A stretch of 64,000 nucleotides of DNA from a virus (taxonomy: Duplodnaviria; Heunggongvirae; Uroviricota; Caudoviricetes), in IMG/VR virus record IMGVR_UViG_2529293038_000017, positions 1 to 64,000 of that record, one strand, 5' to 3'. Under the pieces are notes generated by a model that was not told the origin of the DNA, made no database searches, and worked only from the letters and a program-made list of their open reading frames with translations. The translations under genes and the position numbers were made by a program. How positions within the stretch are numbered: position 1 is the stretch's first letter; every line of letters starts with the position of its first letter. This document shows positions 2,811-61,336 of this stretch, piece after piece.

Positions 2811-3452
2811 ATGGATAAGAAAATATGCGTTGTTTCGATGAGCGTCGGCAAACCGGCGTCAATGACTGCTGCATGGATCAACAACGAGCTGATAATGGCT
2901 GAGCGGACCAGCTACCCTGAACGCCGCCGCGATATGGAACTCCAGTTGCTGCGCGAATTGCGTGAGAAAGAGGAAAAAGGTTTTATCGTGCTGGTGGAAG
3001 AGGAAAACAGCTTTATTACCGGTAGAGTTGGCCAGCGTGTAAGGTTGCGCGATCCCTTCATGAACGGCAGGCCGGTACTAATTGAGGCAATGCAGATTTA
3101 TAAGGAGCTGGAACGCCAGAAAGCAATCAAGTTACCGCGCAAGGAATCCGGCAAATACATCCTCCACCAAAGCATCTTCGATTCCGAACACGACAAAAAA
3201 GGCGATGAATTTTTCAACATCAACTGGAGCGAAATAACGACAGAGCATGTTCTGACGTTACTATGTTGCTTTGCGACGGAATACAACAACGTTGCCAGCG
3301 CAGACTACATCAGGGCAATGGCTGGAGAAGTTGAGGCACGCCAGGAACCATCGTTACTAAGCCCTCTGATTAACATAATTCGCGGAACCCAAACGCTGGC
3401 ACAAAAACAGGTGCCTAAGGGAGTATTAACAGGAAAAGGAAATTATCTATAA
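2811..3452 (+). CDS. mat: Mat-like protein (213 aa)
   Basis: ATG at 2811 with AGGGG Shine-Dalgarno (the ORF-track start at 2784 lies inside the terminator). Position matches P1 mat downstream of ref; identity is from synteny only. Confidence 0.5.
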   Translation: MDKKICVVSMSVGKPASMTAAWINNELIMAERTSYPERRRDMELQLLRELREKEEKGFIVLVEEENSFITGRVGQRVRLRDPFMNGRPVLIEAMQIYKELERQKAIKLPRKESGKYILHQSIFDSEHDKKGDEFFNINWSEITTEHVLTLLCCFATEYNNVASADYIRAMAGEVEARQEPSLLSPLINIIRGTQTLAQKQVPKGVLTGKGNYL

Positions 3453-3508
3453 ACGTCAATGCATTAGGGTATACTTCTCCGTAGAACTATAAGTAAATGG
3501 AGTAAGTA

Positions 3509-4333
3509 ATGAGCGAGTATATAGAAATTGCCTATGCAGCAGCTACACATAGGCTGTGCTTTCTTACAGGCACTGGATTTTCAAAGGCTGTTTCTGATGA
3601 TAAAGCCCCAAGTTGGCAATCTTTATTGGAGCAACTGTGCGGTTTATTGAAGGATGGTGACTCACTCAAAGAGGAATTATTTCCTGATGGAAAAGCAAAA
3701 GACCTTAGCCTTGAAGAGGCTGCTCAGGTTATTGCACTAAAATTTATACTTTCGGGGAAAAATATTTACCAGGAGATTGAGAAAATCATAGCCTCAATCG
3801 AACTTGATCCATCAATTGAATATATTCAAGACTTTTTCAAAGAAAACACATTTAAAGTAATTACGACAAATTATGACAAGTTAGCAGAAAAACTGGCTGG
3901 AGAGAATCGAACGTGTACAATCACCCCCGGCCTGCCAATTCCAAAATATAATTGTGAGGTTAAAGTCTACCATGTTCACGGCTCTATAGACTCCCCATCA
4001 GATATGGTTGTTACTAGCGAGGATTATTTCAGATTTATAAATGGTAATTCTTACTTTTCAAATAAACTAAGCACAGTTCTACATGAAAACACTATTGTTA
4101 TTCTTGGCTATTCTCTAAGTGACGCGAACCTCAAGGCGATTATAAATGAATATAAGGTATTTTCACGGGACAACGTAATGTCCTCCAATATTTTCCTTAT
4201 TTCCCGAGGGAAACTATTGCAACCTATTAAAGATTACTATTTTTCCTGCTTTGGGATTAGGGTTATAGATAAAACAGAGGTGTCTGATTTCTTTAGAAAA
4301 CTTAACAAGAAAATTCCAGAAGCAAAAAAATAA
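3509..4333 (+). CDS. SIR2-like (sirtuin-fold, predicted NAD+-consuming) protein, 274 aa; candidate defence effector
   Basis: GGAG Shine-Dalgarno 6 nt before the ATG. Motifs in SIR2-family order: FLTGTGFSKA (Rossmann GxGxS), VITTNYD (catalytic Asn), VYHVHGS (catalytic His). AT-rich relative to flanks. No database search run. Confidence 0.75.
   Translation: MSEYIEIAYAAATHRLCFLTGTGFSKAVSDDKAPSWQSLLEQLCGLLKDGDSLKEELFPDGKAKDLSLEEAAQVIALKFILSGKNIYQEIEKIIASIELDPSIEYIQDFFKENTFKVITTNYDKLAEKLAGENRTCTITPGLPIPKYNCEVKVYHVHGSIDSPSDMVVTSEDYFRFINGNSYFSNKLSTVLHENTIVILGYSLSDANLKAIINEYKVFSRDNVMSSNIFLISRGKLLQPIKDYYFSCFGIRVIDKTEVSDFFRKLNKKIPEAKK
4324..4333 (+). promoter_or_regulatory. Candidate -1 frameshift site: slippery heptamer A_AAA_AAA followed immediately by the TAA stop
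   Basis: Codons GCA AAA AAA TAA; the -1 frame (AAA AAA ATA AAA GAC AAA TTG...) is open into the 4342..4812 ORF. Confidence 0.3.
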
Positions 4334-40927: not shown

Positions 40928-41094
40928 GTATTTTTAAGTCGCGAATGCTATCTTTTCGCATCATATTGACCTTTTAATCGTTCAGGCTTATAGTTCCGCC
41001 GTCGTAGCAAATTCTGCGACCGGGTTTAGCAGCCTGAATGATTGTGCGGACAGCCGCAGATATCCGATATTGCGGTATTTTTGTGTCCGTAAAA

Positions 41095-41180
41095 CCGCGT
41101 TACGCCCAAATTATGGTGGGGCGTGATGGGGAGGCTTCGGCCTGCTGGTTTCACAATCGCCAGTCTGCTAACCCCGTCAC
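41095..41180 (+). ncRNA. c4: Putative c4 antisense RNA region
   Basis: Upstream of icd/ant. Contains CACAATC and TCTGCTAA, complementary to motifs (GATTGTG, TTTAGCAGC) that occur twice nearby at about 41016-41040 and 41186-41222. Boundaries are approximate. Confidence 0.35.
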
Positions 41181-41241
41181 GTCCTGCCACCTGTTTAGCA
41201 GCGGGTAGCAGGTTGTTAAACCTGATTGTGAGGCCGTAACT

Positions 41242-41463: not shown

Positions 41464-42497
41464 AAAAACCTCTCGTCACCCGTAATGACATAGCCGAAGC
41501 GATCGCCCTGCATACTGCCTGTATGCCGACACGGGAGATCCCCGGCGCAATTGCCAACTATTTCATGATAACCAGACGTTTTTATACCCGAACAGATAAG
41601 GCTGTGATCAACAGGCTACTGATAGCCGAGATCAGGGATTATTTGATTGAACAAGGACGTCTACGTTACGCAACAGTGGCAGCAGAAATGAGAAAGGAGG
41701 CACATATAATGACCGGTAATAATTTGAATGTTGAAAAACCAGCACCTGTTACGTCAGCTACGCCAGCACCAGCCGTGAATATTATCCCCAACACCGGAGA
41801 CACAATCGACAGCCTGACACTGTTAAAGATGGTCAATGAAGCGCGTAAGTTATGTGGGGAACCAGAGGTTCGGAACAACAAATTCATCGAAAAAATACTC
41901 GATGAGCTTGATGGTGAGCACTACACAAAAAGTGTAGTGGAAAAAATGAACAAAACATCAATGCTTGTCATAACCATGACTTTCAAACAAGCCCTGCGAG
42001 TCGCCGCGCGCGAGTCAAAAGCGGTCCGCCGTTCGCTGATCGACAAACTGGAAGAATTACAGCAGGCAAACTCCCCTACCCCATCGATCCCCCAGACATT
42101 ACCAGAAGCCCTACGCCTGGCTGCCGAGTTAGCAGAACAGAAAATGCAGTTGGAACAACAGCTGGTGGCCGCAGCCCCTAAAGTCGATTTTGCCGACCGG
42201 GTATCAGTGGCCAATGGAATCCTGATCGGGAACTTTGCAAAGGTCGTTGGACTTAAGCAAAACGCTCTTTTCTCATGGTTGCGCCAGAATGGCATTCTCA
42301 TGGCTTTTGGAGCGCGCAAAAACGTACCGCGCCAACAGTACATCAACGCCGGGTATTTCACTGTGAAAGAAGTGGTGCTGGATGATGAAAATGGCTACCA
42401 GATACGGCTGACGCCCCAATTAACGGGTAAAGGCCAGCAGTGGTTAACTCGCAAGCTACTTGATGCTGGTTTGTTAAAACCAGTAGCAATAGGTTAA
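41460..42497 (+). CDS. ant: Antirepressor Ant (345 aa) with KilAC-type C-terminal domain
   Basis: Position in immI; C-terminal about 150 aa paralogous to the KilA C-terminus (PEALRLAAELAEQK...GKGQQWL). Confidence 0.7.
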   Translation: MKKPLVTRNDIAEAIALHTACMPTREIPGAIANYFMITRRFYTRTDKAVINRLLIAEIRDYLIEQGRLRYATVAAEMRKEAHIMTGNNLNVEKPAPVTSATPAPAVNIIPNTGDTIDSLTLLKMVNEARKLCGEPEVRNNKFIEKILDELDGEHYTKSVVEKMNKTSMLVITMTFKQALRVAARESKAVRRSLIDKLEELQQANSPTPSIPQTLPEALRLAAELAEQKMQLEQQLVAAAPKVDFADRVSVANGILIGNFAKVVGLKQNALFSWLRQNGILMAFGARKNVPRQQYINAGYFTVKEVVLDDENGYQIRLTPQLTGKGQQWLTRKLLDAGLLKPVAIG

Positions 42498-42504
42498 CAA
42501 AAGA

Positions 42505-42535
42505 AAAAACCTGCCAGCAAACTGGCAGGTTTCTG
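42505..42535. terminator. Rho-independent terminator after ant
   Basis: AACCTGCCAG-CAAA-CTGGCAGGTT stem at 42508-42531. Confidence 0.6.
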
Positions 42536-42574
42536 AGCAGATCGACCAACCCGATCTGGATCGAGTTAGAAAAA

Positions 42575-42591
42575 TTTGCTCTAATAAATTT
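42575..42591. promoter_or_regulatory. C1 operator (TTTGCTCTAATAAATTT), Op53-like, upstream of kilA
   Basis: 16/17 consensus match about 70 bp upstream of kilA. Confidence 0.65.
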
Positions 42592-42660
42592 CGTTTTCTA
42601 AGTGCAAAGAATCACCATTTCGAGCTGGTGATTGAAGGTTGATGCAAATTTGGAGAAAAA

Positions 42661-43461
42661 ATGCAACAAACATTCAATGCGGATATGAATATATCAAACC
42701 TTCATCAAAATGTCGATCCTTCAACCACTCTGCCTGTTATTTGTGGTGTTGAAATTACGACCGACCGAGCTGGCCGTTACAACCTTAATGCTCTACACAG
42801 AGCGAGCGGACTCGGTGCCCATAAAGCGCCAGCTCAATGGCTAAGAACGCTGTCAGCTAAACAGCTCATCGAAGAGCTTGAAAAAGAAACTATGCAGAAT
42901 TGCATAGTTTCGTTCGAAGGCCGTGGCGGCGGCACTTTTGCCCATGAATTGCTCGCAGTGGAGTACGCAGGCTGGATTTCTCCCGCGTTTCGGCTGAAGG
43001 TAAACCAGACATTTATCGACTATCGAGCCGGAAGATTACAACCTGCTATTCCGAAGAGCCTCCCAGAAGCTCTCCGTTTGGCTGCTGACCTGGCAGAGCA
43101 AAAGCAACGGCTGGAGCAAAAAATGCTGATGGATGCACCTAAAGTCGAATTCGCCGAACGCGTTGCTACCGCCAGCGGGGTTCTAATCGGCAACTATGCC
43201 AAAGTGCTCGGCCTGGGCCAAAACTATCTCTTCACCTGGTTGCGTGATAACGGAATTCTGATCGCAACCGGTGAACGCAGGAACGTCCCCAAACAAGAAT
43301 ACATATCCCGTGGGTATTTCACCCTTAAAGAAACCGTGATCGATACAAGCAATGGAAGCAGGATTTCTTTCACGACTCGTATAACCGGCAAAGGTCAGCA
43401 GTGGCTGATGAAGCGATTGCTTGATGCTGGTGTGCTGGTACCTGTCGCGGCAACGCGCTAA
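42661..43461 (+). CDS. kilA: KilA (266 aa) with KilA-N and KilAC domains
   Basis: TGGAG Shine-Dalgarno. 266 aa as in P1 KilA; C-terminus paralogous to Ant. Confidence 0.7.
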   Translation: MQQTFNADMNISNLHQNVDPSTTLPVICGVEITTDRAGRYNLNALHRASGLGAHKAPAQWLRTLSAKQLIEELEKETMQNCIVSFEGRGGGTFAHELLAVEYAGWISPAFRLKVNQTFIDYRAGRLQPAIPKSLPEALRLAADLAEQKQRLEQKMLMDAPKVEFAERVATASGVLIGNYAKVLGLGQNYLFTWLRDNGILIATGERRNVPKQEYISRGYFTLKETVIDTSNGSRISFTTRITGKGQQWLMKRLLDAGVLVPVAATR

Positions 43462-43490
43462 CAGACGTAGTAAGAACCACCAGCATTGTA

Positions 43491-44069
43491 ATGCTGGCTA
43501 AAGTCACTTTCCTGAGCTGTATAACGATGAGCGATTTTACTTTTTCTGGCTATGAATTGGCCTGCTTTGTAACACACTCCGGTCTATCCCGTAGCGCCGG
43601 GCATATCCTGTCGCAATGTGCAAATCTCGCGGCAACAACCAGTGAATACTTCATTCACAAGCCTCACCGCCTGATCGCGGCAGAAACTGGTTATAGCCAA
43701 TCAACCGTCGTTCGTGCATTCCGTGAAGCTGTAAACAAAGGAATTCTGTCTGTAGAGATTGTTATCGGCGATCACCGTGAACGTCGCGCTAACCTGTACC
43801 GGTTTACACCATCCTTTTTGGCCTTCGCACAACAAGCCAAAAATGCGCTGATTGAAAGCAAATTAAAGATCTCTTCAGCGGCAACCAAGGTTAAAGCTGT
43901 TCTCGCTAAGACATTGGCTTTATTTAATTTTTTATCCACACCCCCATGTCAAAATGATACCCCCTCCCCCTGTCAGGATGACGTGGCAATAAAGAATAAG
44001 AAGTCACAAGTTAAAAAACAAAAAGATCAGTTTCCGGCGGTGCCGGAACGACCAGACTCAAAAAATTGA
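43491..44069 (+). CDS. RepL-like lytic replication protein candidate (192 aa) with HTH
   Basis: Follows kilA as repL does in P1; HTH-like segment YSQSTVVRAFREAVNKGIL. Shorter than I recall for P1 RepL, so the call is tentative. Confidence 0.45.
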   Translation: MLAKVTFLSCITMSDFTFSGYELACFVTHSGLSRSAGHILSQCANLAATTSEYFIHKPHRLIAAETGYSQSTVVRAFREAVNKGILSVEIVIGDHRERRANLYRFTPSFLAFAQQAKNALIESKLKISSAATKVKAVLAKTLALFNFLSTPPCQNDTPSPCQDDVAIKNKKSQVKKQKDQFPAVPERPDSKN

Positions 44070-44335
44070 CTTCATGGATCGCTGAGGCAAAAGCAAAGGC
44101 TGACAATCTGCGGTTATCCAAAAAACGCGCTCAAAAACATGAGTTCAAGCAGAAAGTAGAGGCGGCAGCGCGGAAATATGCTTACCTGAAGAACAAGCGT
44201 TCTCCTGATATTGGCGGGGTATCAAACTTCGATAATCTGCCGCATTGCATGACGGTAAACGAAGCTCTTAATGCGGTTTTAGCCAAAAATAAAGATAACG
44301 AACAATGGGGTATACCGGCAGGATTCAGAGGGTGA
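44066..44335 (+). CDS. Hypothetical basic protein (89 aa)
   Basis: ORF overlapping the upstream stop. Confidence 0.4.
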   Translation: MTSWIAEAKAKADNLRLSKKRAQKHEFKQKVEAAARKYAYLKNKRSPDIGGVSNFDNLPHCMTVNEALNAVLAKNKDNEQWGIPAGFRG

Positions 44336-44631
44336 TAGATTGCTCTAATCTGGAGTCACCTGGCGTTTTCAGTTTGAGGTCGGAGATGCAATCTGATTTT
44401 TTACAGTTAGCAATCGCTTTTGCAGGATATGTTTGTATTGGCTTCTGTGTATACATGATCAGCCGAAAAATGCTTGTCGATATCGACCGCAAAGAACAAG
44501 CAGAGAAGATCTTAGTATGGATTTTCTTTGGCGCGGTCTGGCCATTAGGGATCATGTTTGCTGCAACATTTCTTCTGATGTGGATATTCACCCTTCCAGG
44601 TGATTTCTATAGAAAAAAAGCCAGACATTGA
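44305..44631 (+). CDS. Small membrane protein (108 aa)
   Basis: Two hydrophobic helices. Contains a partial operator-like ATTGCTCTAAT at 44338-44348. Confidence 0.4.
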   Translation: MGYTGRIQRVIDCSNLESPGVFSLRSEMQSDFLQLAIAFAGYVCIGFCVYMISRKMLVDIDRKEQAEKILVWIFFGAVWPLGIMFAATFLLMWIFTLPGDFYRKKARH

Positions 44632-44739
44632 TACAATCGTTGCGGGTGCTTGAGGCTATCTGCTTCAGGCATTACCCGAAAAGCAGATAGAAGAAAGCCC
44701 CAGATAACATTACGCGTCCTGCAAGACGCTTAACATTAA

Positions 44740-44810
44740 TCTGAGGCCATATCTATGCTTAGCATACGTAGATTAGCCTCTTACCGACCAAAAGGTCAAG
44801 GAGAAGCAGG
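44740..44810 (-). ncRNA. sok: Putative Sok-like antisense RNA (location approximate)
   Basis: Inferred from hok/sok architecture only; no promoter or terminator mapped. Confidence 0.25.
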
Positions 44811-44961
44811 CTATGAAGCAGCAAAAAGCGATGTTAATCGCTCTGATCGTCATCTGTTTAACCGTCATTGTGACGGCACTGGTAACGAGGAAAGACCTCT
44901 GCGAGGTACGAATCCGAACCAGCCAGACGGAGGTCACTGTCTTCACAGCCTACGAATCTGA
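44755..44961 (+). CDS. mok: Mok-like overlapping reading frame (68 codons)
   Basis: ORF overlapping hok in another frame, as in hok/mok/sok loci. Confidence 0.5.
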   Translation: MLSIRRLASYRPKGQGEAGYEAAKSDVNRSDRHLFNRHCDGTGNEERPLRGTNPNQPDGGHCLHSLRI

Positions 44962-44968
44962 AAGGTAA
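44813..44968 (+). CDS. hok: Hok/Gef-family type I toxin (51 aa)
   Basis: Manual translation MKQQKAMLIALIVICLTVIVTALVTRKDLCEVRIRTSQTEVTVFTAYESER with AAGGAG Shine-Dalgarno; closely resembles E. coli Hok/Gef peptides. Below the ORF-track length cutoff. Confidence 0.85.
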   Translation: MKQQKAMLIALIVICLTVIVTALVTRKDLCEVRIRTSQTEVTVFTAYESER

Positions 44969-45043
44969 GAGACCTGGCGGGGAGAGATCTCCGCCACTCT
45001 TCGTGTGTCAGGTATCCTCAATGCACCCTTTCCTCTCCAAATA

Positions 45044-45067
45044 AAAAAGCTCCCGAAGGAGCTTTAA
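45044..45067. terminator. Rho-independent terminator (bidirectional)
   Basis: AAAGCTCC-CGAA-GGAGCTTT stem with U-runs on both strands. Confidence 0.7.
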
Positions 45068-45084
45068 AATACAAGGGATTACTA

Positions 45085-45594
45085 TTAATCCCACTCAATC
45101 CAGTTGTAGACGATACGAAGTGACGGGCGCACAGCGGCAGTCACATCTTCGGTACTAAAGTCGATTGCATCACTGTAGATTTTGCAGTCCAACATTTCAA
45201 TTGTTGTAGCAGCTTTTGTCACAGCGTTAACCCCGGAAGATTTGGATTCAGGGGTAGCAGCCATCGTGATATCAACATAGTCCTTCGCCGCAATGCGATC
45301 CTTGATGAACTGAAGAATATCGCCTTCGATAGTCTCCACGCACTGGACCTGGATTTCCCCAGAGTTTCGAATTGGTCCGTGCTGGTTGAACTTCACACCA
45401 TTCGGACCATAGTCCTCCACATCCTCGCGGGTCATTTCAGGAATTTGCGACGTGCGAACCAGTACGCTGATATCTTCATGGCCTGCAAAAGTGAGCTGGA
45501 ATTCAGAAGATACCAGTCGTTCGCCTTTGGCCGCGTTGGCAGTATAGCGGCCCTTAATAAATTTACGGTTTCCCTTAGTGTTATTGTGCCCCAT
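45085..45594 (-). CDS. Virion structural protein candidate (169 aa)
   Basis: First gene of the leftward late cluster ending at the terminator. Confidence 0.5.
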   Translation of the reverse strand: MGHNNTKGNRKFIKGRYTANAAKGERLVSSEFQLTFAGHEDISVLVRTSQIPEMTREDVEDYGPNGVKFNQHGPIRNSGEIQVQCVETIEGDILQFIKDRIAAKDYVDITMAATPESKSSGVNAVTKAATTIEMLDCKIYSDAIDFSTEDVTAAVRPSLRIVYNWIEWD

Positions 45595-45605
45595 ATAAAA
45601 TCCTT

Positions 45606-46187
45606 TTACTGGAACGCCCGAACAATATCGGAGCTGTTATATATCGAAGAACCGGTCAACTGGAGGTTGACGGTGTTTTTCAGGAAATGCCCATTGCTGT
45701 CCCTGGGCGCATCGAGATCGAAACTTATGTCCTGGATAGCGACATCAATGATGTTGATCCGGCGACCAATGTTTAGCGTCACACGCTCCGGGATTCGACC
45801 ACCAATACTGGCATCTTTAAGTTCCGGGCTAATCATCGCTGACAATGCGGCGATAGCGCCTGAAACCTCCATGAATGGGTCAAACAAAGCGATGAAAGTT
45901 ACTGGCAGCGTGAAAGTCGGCGGTGTTCCCCCCTCCCAAACCATTAAGCTGTTCCAACGGGCCACCGACGTTGTTTCAGTACCAACCTGCGCAAAACCAC
46001 TGAAAGCACCAGCAACAGACCCCATGGACATACCGGTAAACGGCGCTTCCCAATTCTGGGCCATGTTCATTGCCGCCCCCTGGCTGATATATCCGGTAAC
46101 CTGGTACTGAGAGTTCGTTAAAGTAACTTTCAGAAATGGTGATACACCGTCAGCCTGGCTGTAAACCCCATAAGGTATAGGTGCCAT
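45606..46187 (-). CDS. Virion structural protein candidate (193 aa)
   Basis: Uninterrupted ORF within the structural cluster. Confidence 0.5.
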   Translation of the reverse strand: MAPIPYGVYSQADGVSPFLKVTLTNSQYQVTGYISQGAAMNMAQNWEAPFTGMSMGSVAGAFSGFAQVGTETTSVARWNSLMVWEGGTPPTFTLPVTFIALFDPFMEVSGAIAALSAMISPELKDASIGGRIPERVTLNIGRRINIIDVAIQDISFDLDAPRDSNGHFLKNTVNLQLTGSSIYNSSDIVRAFQ

Positions 46188-46222
46188 TCAAGTTAAAGGC
46201 CGGAGTTCTCCGGCCTCCTCCT

Positions 46223-47038
46223 TTAGCCAAGGCGCTTACGGCGCAGTTTCATTGACTTTTTGCGGGCAAGTTTTGCCGCGCCGGTCTGGGCTTTTCGACG
46301 CGCTTTTTTCAGCGCCGATTTTTGAGCCGCAGTCAGACGTTTTTTACGCAGGCGTTTACGGATGAGTTTGATCTCACCGTTACGAACAACCTTCTTAAAT
46401 GCTTCAGTCAGCATTTCATCAGAAGTGCCAGCAACAACAAACGCCGCTTCCAGTTCGTCGCGGTCGTCGCTATCTAAACCAGCGATAGAGGCACCAACAT
46501 CAGCAGCAGCGTCGTCGTCTTCATCGTCAGCCAGTGCTTCGATCAGGTCATCATCTACACCGCATGCTGCGAGGAAGTCAGCAACATTTGCCCATGCTTC
46601 GTTATAGGCATCGTCCTGTTCTTCTGTAACTTCGGAGTCGTCGTCATCAGAGATACCAGCGATAGCCTGAACGAAACCATCAAGGGAGTCGAAAGTCAGA
46701 TCACCGCTATCAGCCCAGGAGAAAACGGCGTCGGCCGCATCACTCAACGCATTCTGCATAGCACTTCGATTTGCAGCTTCCAGAATCATCTGGTGCGCCT
46801 GTTCGACGGTCCATTCTTTACCGTCTTTCCCTTCCAGGATTTGCTCTGGAGCCGGGGCAGATGGAACGTTATCGTTAGTCTGTGCCGCCGGTTCCGGATT
46901 ATTATTAATAACCGGATCTGTTGGCGGTTCGGCGCTTGCTCGGGCAGACTCCATCAGCTGCACAGGATCAGAGTTCAAAGCGAAACGGGACAGTCCATTC
47001 CCCAAAAATGCCCCGGATTGAAAAAAGTTTTTGCTCAT
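46223..47038 (-). CDS. Acidic protein with basic C-terminal tail (271 aa); scaffold or internal protein candidate
   Basis: Asp/Glu-rich centre and Lys/Arg-rich C-terminus (KKRLTAAQKSALKKARRK...). Confidence 0.5.
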   Translation of the reverse strand: MSKNFFQSGAFLGNGLSRFALNSDPVQLMESARASAEPPTDPVINNNPEPAAQTNDNVPSAPAPEQILEGKDGKEWTVEQAHQMILEAANRSAMQNALSDAADAVFSWADSGDLTFDSLDGFVQAIAGISDDDDSEVTEEQDDAYNEAWANVADFLAACGVDDDLIEALADDEDDDAAADVGASIAGLDSDDRDELEAAFVVAGTSDEMLTEAFKKVVRNGEIKLIRKRLRKKRLTAAQKSALKKARRKAQTGAAKLARKKSMKLRRKRLG

Positions 47039-47047
47039 TGTATTCCC

Positions 47048-48637
47048 TTACTTAATAAGCAGCGGTACGCCCTGGATACGACGGGCTACGCCAGTCGGGC
47101 AGCAGGCCCAGACTACTTCCCATTTATCGAATTCCGCCTGCGTAACTTTCAGCACATACGGTTCTGTACCGTCAGCATCGGGATCACGAGGAGCCACCAG
47201 AGCGCCGGAGGCGACAAAGCGATCTAAAAGTTTGGTCATCCCTTTAGTCAGGCCAGCCGCAGTAATACCGTCCGGGCTATGCTTCATCTGTCGGGCTAAC
47301 TGGACAAAGAAACGACTGATTGCATTCATCAGGGATGGGACGTGCTGGAAGTGCAGATAGTTATCCTGCGTGCAGCAAGTTAAAGCATCGTCGATGATCA
47401 TCTGGCCAGAGGTGCCAACAGATACTTTATTGAGACGGCCCTTGACCATTGCTTCTTCGTCCGGGGTATCTTCCGGATACAGCGGTTGAATTGACGCACG
47501 AGCAATGACGGCACGTTCTTCACCAGCCGGTGAGTAATGCCAACCGCCGACATCAGAGTTTTTCTTGACGCCACGAGCTTTCGCCGCATACGCCGCGCCA
47601 GACAGACCGAAGACCACACGGGATTGGGTCCATTTGTCTTTGCAGGAGAACGGGTAGTGATAGACAGAACAGCTTACATAATCGGTACCAAGTAAACCGG
47701 TACCCTCAACAGCTGTTAGTGCTTCTGCGTACCTTAATGTCGGTTTGACATCAAAGAAGCCATCAATCAGGCGATCTGCACAGATTTTACCTAATGCGGT
47801 GATAGCCGCATTGTCATAGCAGCCCAGGCCAAGAACAGCGGTGTACATGTACGGCGCATTATTCAGCACTTTAACCGCACGCAGGTAAGCAGCGGTTGAG
47901 ATTTTCGACTGATCGCCATTGGTACCGCCAGTGAATGCCACCGATTTTTTATTTGTTACTTTCGCTGTAGAAATCAGCTCTTCATTAACAACCGCACGCA
48001 GATATTTAGAACGGGCTTCCAGAGCCGTAGGCAGATAACACAAGCGGCCCATGTCATCTTTCGCTTCTTCCGCCAAAGACACAGTGTGTGTCTCCAGGGT
48101 CGTTACCACACCGAGCGAAGTCGTCTGGGTCAGTTTTAAGAGGAAGCGTTCATTACCCGCGCTGTCCGCTGTTGCCGTTTCGATGGTTAACTCACGGGTA
48201 GGTGAAATACACGGATCACCATCATCAACGTAGATAGCAAAGGCTTCGCCGCTATCAAGTTCAATTTCAGAACCGTATGGCAACGCACTGTTAGCCGGTT
48301 CGCCTGATTCATCGAACATAATAATCGGGAACTTCGCATCATCCGGAACAGCACGGACAACATAACCAGACGTTTGCTGAATAGCTTCGTACACATGGCG
48401 AATTGGTTCAAACTGTGAGCCGGAAGACGGCTTCAGCGGTTCGCCAAGAACATCTTCGTAATTGGACTCAGTAACCGCAAGAACAGTAAACGGCTTGCCA
48501 CGCGCAAATACGCCAATACCAGCCCACAAGCTGCTATTTAATGCAACACCGGTAGATAACGTCGCATCGGCATTGATCGGGCTAACCGCGACGCCGGATG
48601 CATTACCTAATGACTGTTGAATTGAATATTGAGACAT
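47048..48637 (-). CDS. Tail sheath protein candidate (529 aa)
   Basis: Size and position next to the major capsid gene; P1 gene 22 (sheath) precedes gene 23 (from memory). Confidence 0.55.
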   Translation of the reverse strand: MSQYSIQQSLGNASGVAVSPINADATLSTGVALNSSLWAGIGVFARGKPFTVLAVTESNYEDVLGEPLKPSSGSQFEPIRHVYEAIQQTSGYVVRAVPDDAKFPIIMFDESGEPANSALPYGSEIELDSGEAFAIYVDDGDPCISPTRELTIETATADSAGNERFLLKLTQTTSLGVVTTLETHTVSLAEEAKDDMGRLCYLPTALEARSKYLRAVVNEELISTAKVTNKKSVAFTGGTNGDQSKISTAAYLRAVKVLNNAPYMYTAVLGLGCYDNAAITALGKICADRLIDGFFDVKPTLRYAEALTAVEGTGLLGTDYVSCSVYHYPFSCKDKWTQSRVVFGLSGAAYAAKARGVKKNSDVGGWHYSPAGEERAVIARASIQPLYPEDTPDEEAMVKGRLNKVSVGTSGQMIIDDALTCCTQDNYLHFQHVPSLMNAISRFFVQLARQMKHSPDGITAAGLTKGMTKLLDRFVASGALVAPRDPDADGTEPYVLKVTQAEFDKWEVVWACCPTGVARRIQGVPLLIK

Positions 48638-50629: not shown

Positions 50630-51631
50630 TTAAGGCTTCGGCTTTTTATCGAGGCTCTTTCTAAGGATATGCCCAATCATCCTGTCGAGTTCTTCCTGTA
50701 GCTCTTTTGAAAGTCGATTAAACTCATAAGAAAATGCACGGCCTTTCACGCGCTTCCTTGCAAAGCGATCCTTGTCCTCAAATTTCCATAATTCAGTAAC
50801 TACGGACTTATCTTTAGAACCTTTATCCGTGAGTAGTGAGGCTTCCTTTGTTATCAAGCGCAGGATTTTATTTTTAACTTCATCTTCGGCCATTTCTTCA
50901 ATGGATAAGATGTCGTTTATTTCCGGGGATATGTTTTGAATAAGCTGATCAAACTCTAAATTCTTGTTCCCCATTTCGTCGCCAACAGCACAAAGCGTTT
51001 TGTAGTCCGAAAAGGTTAATTCCGACTGCACAGGGAAAAGGGCGACTAATTCTTCCGGAGCACTCGCTGCCTGGAGAGCACGCGTGACTTTCGCCTGAGA
51101 CAGCCCTTCCTTGGCTGCAATATCCTTCTGACTCATCCCATCATTTTTCATTCGCATCAAACGCAGACCTATTTCTCGAATGCTGTGCTGCAATGCTGTC
51201 TGAACGTCTTTCGCTAAATTTTGCGCTTCCTGAACGCTGATCTCCTGGTCCGTGACTAAAACCCGCAACCCTACGTTCTCTAAGATGGCAGAAGCTCGAC
51301 GCCGGGAACCATCCAAAATTTCAATTTTCCCTGTAGCCCGTCTAACACCTATTGCAGGGTAAAATTGCTGATGCTTAATAGTGCTTCGGATACTTTTTAA
51401 TGATTTTGGCGTAAGAGATGCCTGGTCACGCCCGTTGTTATGCTGATCAACAAAGGTATCGCTTTCTACCTGGTTCGGAGGTATTACCTCTTCAATAAAT
51501 GTGGCCTGGCGACCAGTTGATAACTTGAATACCTGCTCGACTCGATCGCCAGAGGCTGAAGAACTATCAAATCCGCTTAATATTGAAGGATTAAGGGTTC
51601 GCCCAATTGTTGGTCTGTTTTTCTTTGACAT
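50630..51631 (-). CDS. parB: ParB partition protein (333 aa)
   Basis: Length matches P1 ParB; HTH region; lies between parA and parS. Confidence 0.85.
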   Translation of the reverse strand: MSKKNRPTIGRTLNPSILSGFDSSSASGDRVEQVFKLSTGRQATFIEEVIPPNQVESDTFVDQHNNGRDQASLTPKSLKSIRSTIKHQQFYPAIGVRRATGKIEILDGSRRRASAILENVGLRVLVTDQEISVQEAQNLAKDVQTALQHSIREIGLRLMRMKNDGMSQKDIAAKEGLSQAKVTRALQAASAPEELVALFPVQSELTFSDYKTLCAVGDEMGNKNLEFDQLIQNISPEINDILSIEEMAEDEVKNKILRLITKEASLLTDKGSKDKSVVTELWKFEDKDRFARKRVKGRAFSYEFNRLSKELQEELDRMIGHILRKSLDKKPKP

Positions 51632-51647
51632 GGGGGTTTCTTACTCC

Positions 51648-52844
51648 TCAGTTAGATCTGATAAATTCAATACGGTCAAAAACTGCTTTAGCAAAATCTT
51701 CCGCGGCAATTCGCGCGTTCTTCAATGCATCAGCACTACCAACATACGTTGCCGGGTTAGCTGAAATAACAGTGTCAAAAGACTCGCCGCAACGTTCAAA
51801 ACCGTCAAGGCGAGGGAGGACGACATCGAGCATATCCCCACCGAACACTTCTTTAGCCAAGCTATGGCAATACTTATGATCTGCCTTGTTACTCAACTTG
51901 GACATAAAACCAATGTTAGTCGCAAGCTGGCACTCGCAGCCTTCATCCGAAATGAGTTTCACCAACTCAGGAAGGCGGGCAACGTATTTAAGCGATGAGT
52001 GGAAATCGACAGTTGCTGGCGGCAGAGGTGTAAACAGTATATTGGCCGAGGCCAAAGCATTTTTCAGGAAGGCGTCAAGGTGAGGACCACTATCAACGAG
52101 GATAAAGTCATAATCGCTCTTCAGCTTATCAATCACATTTTCTTTCAGGACAGCATGGATGTTCTGACCCGGTAGATGCTCATTGCACAGCTCTCTCCAA
52201 TCGGATGCAATAAAGGCATCGTCAATCGACGCAGGCATAACGTCAACCCCAGGTACAACAGAAGGAACAATAAACTCCTCTAACAGCTCTTCACGGCTTA
52301 CATTCTGCAACATAGCCTGTGCAGATGTTGCGTTTACGATACCAATAGAGTGTTTATGGCTTAAAAACATCGTTGCTGAAGATTGCGGATCAAGGTCAAT
52401 AACCAGAATCCTTAAATCTTCCATCAGAAGATGAGGGTGGGCACGCATTGCATGCGCCAGAGAAACCGTCGATACAGTTTTTGACACACCGCCTTTAAGA
52501 TTGGAGATGAAAATCACATACGCTTCGCTGTAGCGATCCCGGTATTTTGGCACTCCGCGATGTTCATATATGTCAATGATGTTCTGAATTGACATCGCAT
52601 ATTTCATTGAAGAGCCAGCAGGGCGTTTATCGAAAACATAGCCCTTTTCTTCCATTTCACTTACGGCATAGTCAACGTTCGCTCGAGTCAGTAGAGGCAA
52701 TTTTGCCAGTGCCGCTTTCGCATAGACCTGGTAAAACTCGTTCGCGTGTAGCTCATCCTTTTGCAACTGTACTTGTTCAGTCAGAACATTGAGCATTCTG
52801 TTTGCTCTTTGAGCAACCTTGTGAAGCTGGCTGGAATCACTCAT
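51648..52844 (-). CDS. parA: ParA partition ATPase (398 aa)
   Basis: Deviant Walker A KGGVSKT and ParA-type N-terminal DNA-binding extension; 398 aa as in P1 ParA. Confidence 0.9.
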   Translation of the reverse strand: MSDSSQLHKVAQRANRMLNVLTEQVQLQKDELHANEFYQVYAKAALAKLPLLTRANVDYAVSEMEEKGYVFDKRPAGSSMKYAMSIQNIIDIYEHRGVPKYRDRYSEAYVIFISNLKGGVSKTVSTVSLAHAMRAHPHLLMEDLRILVIDLDPQSSATMFLSHKHSIGIVNATSAQAMLQNVSREELLEEFIVPSVVPGVDVMPASIDDAFIASDWRELCNEHLPGQNIHAVLKENVIDKLKSDYDFILVDSGPHLDAFLKNALASANILFTPLPPATVDFHSSLKYVARLPELVKLISDEGCECQLATNIGFMSKLSNKADHKYCHSLAKEVFGGDMLDVVLPRLDGFERCGESFDTVISANPATYVGSADALKNARIAAEDFAKAVFDRIEFIRSN

Positions 52845-52849
52845 CGAAA

Positions 52850-52950
52850 GTCATCCTTTATGCTGTATTTTTGAATTTAATTAAAAATGCTGCATAAAAT
52901 AATAATGTATGCGTAGATGCTTGTACATAGCATTCTCTGCATGTTTACTC
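52850..52950. promoter_or_regulatory. par operon promoter/operator region
   Basis: AT-rich region with imperfect inverted repeats (TGCATAAAATAATAATGTATGC) directly upstream of parA. Confidence 0.4.
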
Positions 52951-53104
52951 CTTTGCCAAGTGTGTCACAACATGCTTTGGCATCCTCCACGTATAAAGGA
53001 CGCGGATTTCTTCTATGTTCAGGTTGTAGCCTGAATCATTTTGGTGATTTCCTGCTTCAACGGGCAGCCAGGCTTCACTCTCTATCAACTGGTGAGAACG
53101 GCTT

Positions 53105-53400
53105 GCCCGGCAGCTTCGATGTGTGCTGGAGGGAGAATAAAAGTCTAAGATGTGCGATAGAGGGAAGTCGCATTGAATTATGTGCTGTGGAGGGATCGCT
53201 GGTATCAAATATGTGTGCTGGAGGGAAAGACAGAGAATTACATGTGCGCTGGAGGGAAAAACTGATGGACAGATGTGTGCTGGAGGGAAAGTCTGGGCAA
53301 ACTGCGGGGCGTCCCCCTCCAGCGCACATCAAAAACAGGAAATTGGACAAGCCTTCCCGGCAGCACACATTTTTTGAATGCAGCTGCCCTCCAGCACACA
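53105..53400. repeat. incA: incA iteron array (about nine RepA-binding repeats)
   Basis: Repeated GATGTGTGCTGGAGGGAAA-like units in both orientations, downstream of repA. Confidence 0.85.
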
Positions 53401-53401
53401 C

Positions 53402-54262
53402 TTATTCGGGGAGTTTCAGCTTTGGATTGCGAGAATGGACGATTACAAAACTTTCCCGGCCTTTCTTCTCTATTGAACAGTCGAGATAGCCGATTGTTTT
53501 AAGCTGTTCTATCGCTTTCTTAATGATACGGTTTTGCTCGCCAACAGCTGACTGCAAAGCCAGGCGCTCACGGATTCGCGCGAACGATAGCGGCAACGGG
53601 TTCTGCGGAAGGCTTTCGATGAAAGTGTAAATGGCTTGTGCAGCTTCTTTCTTCGGAAGGGCACGCAAGGCGTGGTGTTGCAACAGAACGCGATAATCAA
53701 GCTGGAACAGCTCCCACAACTTCGAATCAGCCTCCAGCTCTATCAGATCAAGGTCAGCATCAAAACGCCCGACCTTCAGCAGACCAGTCTGATAGCCGCC
53801 TTTAGCATCTTTTCCGCGCTTAAAAGCGATACCCTTGTTACGCAAGCGTCCAAGTGATTCATGAATGGTTAAACGCAGTTTCGCATCCAGACGTTTTGAG
53901 GGGAAACCACAGGCTTTAGCGAATTCCTGAAACGATAACTGGATGGTGTTTGAGGACAAGCCGTATTTGCTGAACGCGTAGATGACACCGATCCACGTTT
54001 TGAAATCAGTATCCATATCGAGTCGAGGACCGGTGATTTTAATATCATCGTAACCCTCGGCTTTAGCTATCTCCAGCTGGGAAAACGCTTTGGTGGCATC
54101 AATCTCTTTACTTTCTCCTTTGCTCTTTGATGGCTTCGGCACGAATACCCCCAAGCGCATCAACGCTACAGGCTGCACAGTGTTGTTTGAATTAACTGTT
54201 AGTTCTTTTGCCTTACTTTCAATGTCTGCGTAAAGAATATCGGAGATAAATGATTGATTCAT
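53402..54262 (-). CDS. repA: RepA plasmid replication initiator (286 aa)
   Basis: MNQSFISDILYADIESKAKELT...; 286 aa; flanked by iteron arrays as in the P1 R replicon. Confidence 0.92.
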   Translation of the reverse strand: MNQSFISDILYADIESKAKELTVNSNNTVQPVALMRLGVFVPKPSKSKGESKEIDATKAFSQLEIAKAEGYDDIKITGPRLDMDTDFKTWIGVIYAFSKYGLSSNTIQLSFQEFAKACGFPSKRLDAKLRLTIHESLGRLRNKGIAFKRGKDAKGGYQTGLLKVGRFDADLDLIELEADSKLWELFQLDYRVLLQHHALRALPKKEAAQAIYTFIESLPQNPLPLSFARIRERLALQSAVGEQNRIIKKAIEQLKTIGYLDCSIEKKGRESFVIVHSRNPKLKLPE

Positions 54263-61182: not shown

Positions 61183-61258
61183 GATGGTGTAGCTCAGCGG
61201 TTAGAGCGGTTGACTGTTAATCAACGGGTCGATGGTTCAAATCCATCCACCATCGCCA
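61183..61258 (+). tRNA. tRNA-Asn (anticodon GTT)
   Basis: Manual cloverleaf: acceptor GATGGTG/CACCATC, D-arm GCTC-AGCGGTTA-GAGC, anticodon arm GTTGA-CTGTTAA-TCAAC, T-arm GATGG-TTCAAAT-CCATC, encoded CCA. Confidence 0.9.
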
Positions 61259-61260
61259 AT

Positions 61261-61336
61261 GCCGGTTTAGCTCAGTTGGTAGAGCGCCTGCCTTGTAAGC
61301 AGGATGTCAGCGGTTCGAGTCCGTTAATCGGCACCA
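61261..61336 (+). tRNA. tRNA-Thr (anticodon TGT)
   Basis: Manual cloverleaf: acceptor GCCGGTT/AATCGGC, anticodon arm CCTGC-CTTGTAA-GCAGG, T-arm AGCGG-TTCGAGT-CCGTT, encoded CCA. Confidence 0.9.

Follow-up and report, generated by a model that had tools for sequence, protein, structure and literature searches.

A short segment between the repL and bplB regions of a P1-like phage-plasmid raises the question of whether this element carries a further, RNA-based addiction system in addition to the phd/doc system of P1. The segment lies in a 64-kb window (the whole stretch of DNA that was analysed), the backbone of which is that of a P1-like phage-plasmid (Punavirus), with flanks collinear with reference P1 (NC_005856) and with the C4 RNA and tRNAs present elsewhere. 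The original prediction, made from the sequence alone, had placed here an unannotated type I toxin-antitoxin locus of the hok/mok/sok type, and this identification is supported at the levels of the protein, the RNA family and the structural elements of the hok mRNA (Table 1). The best explanation of the locus, held here with considerable confidence, is an intact hok/sok module for post-segregational killing that supplements phd/doc.

Table 1. Features of the hok/sok locus and its immediate surroundings (positions in the window)
Feature	Position	Strand	Basis or remark
Replacement segment, 693 bp	44350..45042		blastn breakpoints against NC_005856
ORF81, 81 aa	44386..44631	+	ORF list; annotated by PGAP at 81 aa in CP069885
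Predicted hok promoter	44610..44637	+	-35 TAGAAA, 16-nt spacer, TG-extended -10 TACAAT (44632-44637)
Full-length hok (mok-hok) mRNA	44644..45030	+	Putative 5' end from Rfam model start and promoter; 3' end approximate
tac (translational activator) GGGUGCUUGAGG	44644..44655	+	Fold partners
tac partner in predicted metastable 5' hairpin	44662..44677	+	Folds of 110-nt nascent and 3'-truncated RNAs
Sok antisense RNA, ~77 nt	44687..44763	-	Ends mapped by alignment from annotated sokC (K-12) and sokW (933W)
ucb (upstream complementary box, anti-SD) AAAGCCCCAG	44694..44703	+	Pairs with mok SD region and with tac
mok Shine-Dalgarno GAGG	44743..44746	+	8 nt ahead of mok ATG; sequestered by ucb
Sok-target hairpin with mok AUG, loop CUUAGCAUA	44751..44773	+	Fold of 44743-44780; Rfam consensus helix
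mok reading frame, 68 codons	44755..44961	+	ORF list; offset +1 relative to hok
Putative Sok promoter	44770..44799	-	-35 TTGACC (44799->44794), 18-nt spacer, -10 TAATCT (44775->44770)
dcb (downstream complementary box) GCCUC	44776..44780	+	Pairs with mok SD in open form; Rfam consensus helix
hok Shine-Dalgarno AAGGAG	44799..44804	+	From sequence; 8 nt ahead of hok ATG
hok toxin gene	44813..44968	+	ATG start, 51 aa; Pfam PF01848; identical to RefSeq WP_023156625.1 'HokD'
3' UTR stem-loop, 9 bp, loop GAGA	44975..44996	+	Full-length fold; putative 3'-processing stop; IS186 target
fbi (fold-back inhibition) CCUCAAUGCACCC	45016..45028	+	Pairs with tac; conserved in 933W
P1-backbone hairpin, downstream of bplB	45046..45065	-	Minus-strand-only terminator-scan call; identical in reference P1

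The candidate toxin gene that had been proposed, with its quoted peptide, its AAGGAG Shine-Dalgarno and an overlapping mok-like frame, was recovered in full from the sequence and the six-frame ORF list. The peptide, MKQQKAMLIALIVICLTVIVTALVTRKDLCEVRIRTSQTEVTVFTAYESER, matches Pfam HOK_GEF over the entire profile (positions 1-42 of 42) at 73.1 bits (E=1.3e-20, gathering cut-off 22 bits), bearing out the predicted family, and matches PHROG 251 'MokW-like host killing' at 107.8 bits (E=4e-31). It has the Hok/Gef layout of about 50 aa, comprising one N-terminal transmembrane helix (mean Kyte-Doolittle hydropathy of 3.07 over residues 6-24) and a polar C-terminal part with a conserved Cys, and its RKDLCEV stretch, including Cys30, is the same in HokW and HokC. 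The NCBIfam orthologue models gave scores under their curated cut-offs (NF007279, 46.5 bits versus 73; NF007290 (HokA), 36 versus 89), and thus membership of the family is secure while the orthologue name 'HokD' is unsupported by these models. Judged by its sequence, the 51-codon ORF is a Hok/Gef toxin.

Comparison with hokW and hokC, respectively, gave 4/4 and 12/10 synonymous/non-synonymous codon changes in the hok frame, versus 0/9 and 2/19 in the mok frame. The synonymous enrichment is confined to the hok frame, showing selective constraint on the sequence of Hok but none on that of Mok. The lack of conservation of Mok agrees with the published view that translation of mok matters, while its product does not (PMC9841398). 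Both frames are open, with no frameshift, and the locus contains no IS.

The leader of the hok mRNA is covered by a match to Rfam RF01794 (44644-44818, plus strand, 114.9 bits, E=7.9e-27, model positions 1-157 of 157, gathering cut-off 59 bits), the sole such match in the window. This family is named 'sok', yet the match is in the sense of the hok-mRNA leader and reaches as far as the hok AUG. Other Rfam matches nearby (CRISPR-DR46, ceN48 and sbrA) and a reverse-strand 'sok' match of 21 bits were far under the gathering score and were taken as chance. The hok promoter was called by a promoter scan, with 9 of 12 matches plus the TG, and the position of its -10 box is conserved (TAGAAT in 933W, TATAAT in K-12 hokC). 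Because the homology to lambdoid hok loci starts at 44632, the -35 box falls outside it, in foreign DNA that forms the end of ORF81.

The tac, ucb, dcb and fbi elements were all located, and their complementarities were followed in folds of the full-length, nascent and truncated RNAs. The full-length mRNA gives a predicted fold of -154.6 kcal/mol (z=-7.05) with its 5' and 3' ends paired, in which a tac/fbi stem of 12 bp plus one bulged U closes the minimum free energy (MFE) structure, and ucb, through positions 44697-44703, base-pairs with the region of the mok SD (44741-44747). Across the RNA folds, tac has three mutually exclusive partners, namely fbi, ucb and 44662-44677, as the R1 model demands (PMC9841398). 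It pairs with 44695-44701 of ucb in the fold of a 70-nt nascent RNA, as it does in the Rfam consensus, and the metastable tac hairpin is the MFE structure of the 110-nt nascent RNA. In RNA truncated after the 3' UTR stem-loop, enforcing the tac/ucb pairing leads to formation of the stem between the mok SD and dcb (GAGGC 44743-44747 with GCCUC 44776-44780), and the energy of this open form is -129.8 kcal/mol versus -132.4 kcal/mol for the MFE, a gap of 2.6. The unconstrained MFE of the truncated RNA (RNAfold) prefers the metastable hairpin over the tac/ucb stem. In these models, a switch following removal of fbi is energetically plausible, though the open form would not be chosen on MFE alone. 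In pSvP1, the direct repeat of IS186B matches positions 44981-44990 of the 3' UTR stem-loop at 9 of 10 positions.

The antisense RNA region is collinear with annotated sokW and sokC. The predicted Sok consists of a free 5' tail, a long hairpin and then the U-rich tail UUUCUUCUAU, and the hairpin folds with -31.9 kcal/mol (z=-5.0). Its promoter is, on present evidence, the least secure element of the locus. The -10 box matches the consensus at only three of six positions, and the promoter is absent from the output of the consensus promoter scan at the locus; it was therefore placed by homology and by eye. In this position it would overlap the hok SD and abut dcb, as in R1.

The surroundings of the locus are those of P1, with 98.3 % identity to NC_005856 over 42000-44349 (ant, kilA, repL; collinear) and 97.0 % over 45043-48000 (bplB, pmgG, 21, 22). 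The original prediction described an accessory module inserted between the repL region and the late structural cluster. A non-P1 cassette is indeed present between repL and bplB, but it constitutes a replacement rather than an insertion, with 693 bp standing for the 1,826 bp of reference-P1 positions 51586-53411 (the distal end of Orlf, a C1 operator, with rlfA, rlfB and pmgF). The expectation that reference P1 lacks hok/sok was borne out, NC_005856 having rlfA, rlfB and pmgF at this locus, and no hok copy was found elsewhere in that record, with one matching place only at the sensitivity of megablast. The right junction at 45043 is common to all P1-like variants examined.

The replacing segment is composed of ORF81 and a 411-bp hok/sok cassette (44632-45042), and thus holds a gene that the original prediction did not include. 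ORF81, which has an alternative upstream ATG at 44305 (giving 108 aa), shows hydropathy peaks at residues 8-26 and 42-60, corresponding to two predicted hydrophobic segments. It matches PHROG 3772 (unknown function, E=5e-54), is confined to P1-like phages in the phage collection, and has no match in Pfam, NCBIfam or PADLOC. On the other side of the cassette, a strong terminator had been assigned to the hok locus at 45044-45067. A hairpin does exist there, but the surrounding DNA is identical in reference P1, placing it in the P1 backbone and outside the inserted module, and it is the minus strand that carries its U-run. It has an 8-bp, GC-cored stem and, on the minus strand, a UUCG loop followed by UUUUAUUU, with a minus-strand fold of -14.3 kcal/mol including the U-run, whereas the plus strand has AAAAU after it. 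This hairpin is the backbone's terminator on the bplB side, and could also halt read-through from hok.

The distribution of the locus was examined with a junction query (44200-45200), counting matches of at least 80 % coverage. The hok arrangement was found in 216 plasmids of PLSDB; among 5,426 complete E. coli genomes, 199 have it. It is the commonest allele of the site in PLSDB, compared with 98 plasmids for the reference-P1 arrangement at the same coverage and 83 for a third allele. At this site, laboratory P1 is thus unrepresentative of natural P1-like plasmids, in which the hok allele outnumbers the rlfA-rlfB-pmgF allele. Owing to the presence of two addiction systems, natural P1-like plasmids, including those carrying resistance genes, may resist curing more than P1 does. 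Separately, a hok/sok-related match is present in 4,747 of the 5,426 E. coli genomes, most of which carry chromosomal hok/sok loci.

The description of the locus as unannotated held for the ORF track then available, in which the short frame had been missed, but not for public records, since RefSeq contains the identical peptide as HokD (WP_023156625.1). All of the top matches to the junction query have at least 99 % identity, and in almost every one the gene is entered as 'hokD, type I toxin-antitoxin system toxin HokD'. The closest match, CP069885 (99.8 % identity), codes for the very same peptide. Phage genomes differ in how they label the locus ('MokW', 'hypothetical protein' or no feature), one P1 record mislabelling the 51-codon ORF as 'MokW', and Sok is annotated in none of them. 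In the literature, eight hypervariable regions are listed, of which rlfA-rlfB-pmgF is one, and the best-conserved genes of P1-like plasmids include phd and doc (PMC9603915). Published comparisons list the site as a variable region with an "antibacterial toxin", and a 2026 preprint mentions a P1-like plasmid with TA modules of types I and II. A literature search for papers testing hok/sok function in a P1-like element found none. The locus is already known at the level of annotation, and its mechanism is textbook.

Toxin-less remnants of the locus are present in the sibling P1-like phages 673R5, RCS47 and SJ46. Their homology to the window spans ORF81, the promoter and leader of hok and all of the Sok-coding region, and ends at about 44775-44778, at dcb and the Sok -10. 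Beyond this point, a different cassette replaces the toxin, the Sok -35, the 3' stem-loop and fbi. The replacing cassette contains one minus-strand ORF of 171-210 aa, and these ORFs have no match in Pfam, NCBIfam or PADLOC. The 77 nt coding for Sok in 673R5 are identical to the window (77/77), with the -10 box kept, and the Rfam scores on the remnants are 89.7 and 68.5 bits. The 673R5-type allele occurs in 83 PLSDB plasmids. Such a remnant could conceivably act as an anti-addiction element, allowing its carrier to displace an incompatible hok-bearing P1-like plasmid unharmed, a putative role that is unlikely but would, if true, mean that the site records a contest of addiction and anti-addiction between competing phage-plasmids. 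The putative expression of Sok by toxin-less remnants, with the protection it might confer, is only mildly novel, and is the one such possibility at this locus.

The 411-bp cassette is probably a complete and active hok/mok/sok system, and a mechanism may be proposed for it by homology with plasmid R1. A weak constitutive promoter would produce a stable hok mRNA of ~385 nt, in the nascent form of which a local hairpin would hold tac. In the full-length RNA, tac would be paired with fbi, and ucb would cover the mok Shine-Dalgarno, preventing translation and blocking the binding of Sok. Slow 3' trimming as far as the 3' UTR stem-loop would remove fbi, upon which tac would swap to ucb, freeing the mok SD and exposing the target hairpin. 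In plasmid-carrying cells, the short-lived Sok (44763->44687) would pair with this target, and the duplex would be cleaved by RNase III. In cells from which the plasmid has been lost, Sok would decay first, permitting translation of mok and the coupled translation of hok, and the 51-aa Hok would enter the inner membrane and cause cell death. The module would thereby provide an RNA-based addiction system beside phd/doc. Chromosomal Sok RNAs of E. coli might cross-protect against it.

Other readings of the locus concern whether the gene is real, whether it is expressed, and what it is kept for. That the frame is a meaningless chance ORF has a negligible probability: its shortness (51 codons) is the sole point in its favour, and it is ruled out by the Pfam, Rfam (E=7.9e-27) and PHROG scores given above, in addition to which RefSeq annotates the identical peptide. 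The locus could instead be an inert relic from which Hok is never made, like most chromosomal hok loci of K-12. This would fit the weak Sok -10 and the non-native hok -35, the existence of sibling P1-like phages that are without the toxin half and suffer no obvious harm, and the fact that IS186 strikes this locus in other elements. It is nonetheless very improbable for a locus in which nothing disrupts any element or either reading frame, synonymous changes are in excess in the hok frame, and the allele is the commonest at its site in PLSDB.

A different question is whether plasmid retention is what keeps the cassette in place, or whether its main value lies in blocking phages (abortive infection) or in competition. 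A superinfecting phage that stops host transcription would cause Sok to decay, and Hok would then kill the cell before the phage completes its cycle. Pecota and Wood (1996) reportedly found that the hok/sok system of R1 excludes phage T4. A second addiction module also looks redundant given P1 phd/doc, and the site is a hotspot at which accessory cassettes are swapped (PMC9603915), typical of defence or competition cargo. PADLOC, however, gives no match for Hok or ORF81, and the device would operate through the same RNA switch, making it an added role rather than a different entity; as the main reason for keeping the cassette, it is improbable.

The reference system is hok/sok (parB) of plasmid R1, reviewed by Le Rhun et al. 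(PMC9841398). There, the nascent RNA forms a metastable 5' hairpin, the full-length mRNA contains a tac/fbi stem and a ucb-sequestered mok SD, and the 3'-trimmed RNA contains tac/ucb and mok-SD/dcb stems; Sok binding is followed by RNase III cleavage. The same elements are present here, including an out-of-frame mok overlapping hok and a cis-antisense Sok. Unlike in R1, a conjugative plasmid, the carrier is a phage-plasmid, and the toxin appears to be of the Gef/HokD/HokW type rather than the R1 Hok type.

The hokW/mokW/sokW locus of phage 933W and other lambdoid cassettes share 86.5-91 % nucleotide identity with positions 44632-45028, the sole part of the segment with lambdoid homology (86.5 % to 933W and at most 90.8 % to a Rac-type locus). 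In 933W, tac is identical and fbi near-identical. Outside P1-like elements, the cassettes most closely related to the present one are those of lambdoid prophages, which are also its likely source. In contrast to the out-of-frame mok of the present locus, mokW and hokW share a reading frame in 933W owing to a 1-nt difference, which adds an N-terminal extension. Differences are also seen in the target loop and in the 5' tail of Sok (identity over Sok, 67 of 74 positions), which makes cross-recognition uncertain. The chromosomal hokC/mokC/sokC (gef) locus of K-12 resembles the present one in its peptide family and leader architecture, with sokC mapping to 44687-44763, but its 3' stem-loop is cut by IS186A and it has no fbi, whereas the locus described here is complete. 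K-12 hokD (relF) is not known to have mok or sok.

Within P1 itself, the rlfA-rlfB-pmgF genes of the reference phage (variable region 5) occupy the same slot, from repL/Orlf to the bplB terminator, with wholly different gene content. The P1 phd/doc system has the same presumed role, that of killing cells that have lost the prophage-plasmid, but is a type II system with a protein antitoxin, is located elsewhere in the genome and outside the window, and is present in almost all P1-like plasmids (PMC9603915). By comparison, hok/sok is RNA-regulated, accessory, and confined to one class of alleles.

The hok 3' stem-loop of the P1-like window coincides with a target of IS186 (see table). In E. coli K-12, hokC is interrupted by IS186A at the position of this stem-loop. 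For the IS186B copy of pSvP1, a direct repeat of 10 bp has been reported, and it agrees with the target in the window at 9 of 10 positions. The pSvP1 paper suggested that IS186B caused the deletion of rlfA-rlfB-pmgF, the P1 genes in whose place the hok cassette stands. The sequence comparison instead argues that IS186B probably struck a hok cassette already present in pSvP1, and that the deletion was probably not its doing. The left breakpoint of the replaced segment falls within the C1 operator Orlf, whose initial 11 bp (ATTGCTCTAAT) are retained in the window, with the final 6 bp changed (CTGGAG vs TATAAC in P1).

Coordinates of the features discussed (window positions unless another phage is named)
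Feature	Position	Remark
repL	43491-44335	one-A deletion after 44012
C1 operator Orlf (Op55)	44339-44355	contains left breakpoint of replaced segment
ORF81	44386-44631	81 aa; alternative start 44305
hok 3' stem-loop, GC-rich	44975-44996	IS186 target at 44981-44990
hok-leader/Sok remnant, 673R5	2826-3018	counterpart of window 44632-44778
hok-leader/Sok remnant, RCS47	4034-4207	counterpart of window 44632-44778
hok-leader/Sok remnant, SJ46	~3440-3589	counterpart of window 44632-44778
mokW/hokW region, 933W	1616-1828	compared with window 44755-44968

The sibling P1-like phages 673R5, RCS47 and SJ46 retain the hok promoter and leader, together with a Sok-coding sequence identical or near-identical to that of the window. 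The hok gene, the Sok -35 and the 3' element fbi are gone, and another cassette with one uncharacterised minus-strand ORF is in their place. The 673R5-type remnant occurs in 83 PLSDB plasmids, and such toxin-less Sok remnants might act as anti-addiction elements.

Annotation of these loci is inconsistent: the hok ORF appears in phage records as 'MokW', as a 'hypothetical protein' or without a feature, and Sok is annotated in none of the phage records inspected. The Rfam match to RF01794 (window 44644-44818), despite its name 'sok antitoxin', runs in the sense of the hok mRNA, with the hok AUG as its end point, so Sok is mis-oriented if its strand is read from this match.

The -35 region of the hok promoter comes from the 3' end of the upstream neighbour, ORF81. 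The ORF81 protein has two hydrophobic segments and belongs to PHROG 3772, a family of unknown function. Within the phage collection it is confined to P1-like phages and invariably adjoins repL. At the corresponding place SJ46 has a homologue with 44 % identity. In repL, the lytic replication initiator gene, an A-run is one A shorter than in reference P1 and in plasmid CP069885 (99.8 % identical), splitting the frame into ORFs 43491-44069 and 44066-44335; the missing base reflects either a sequencing error in the homopolymer or a genuine frameshift. Away from the hok locus, at 40988-41194 and 61183-61333, the window has standard P1 features: the C4 antisense RNA together with the a1/b1 targets, and a pair of neighbouring tRNA genes.

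In Stx phage 933W, mokW is in frame with hokW and forms an N-terminal extension of it, owing to a 1-nt difference (AAAGG-CAAGG vs AAAGGTCAAGG in the window). By contrast, mok in the window is out of frame with hok, as in R1.
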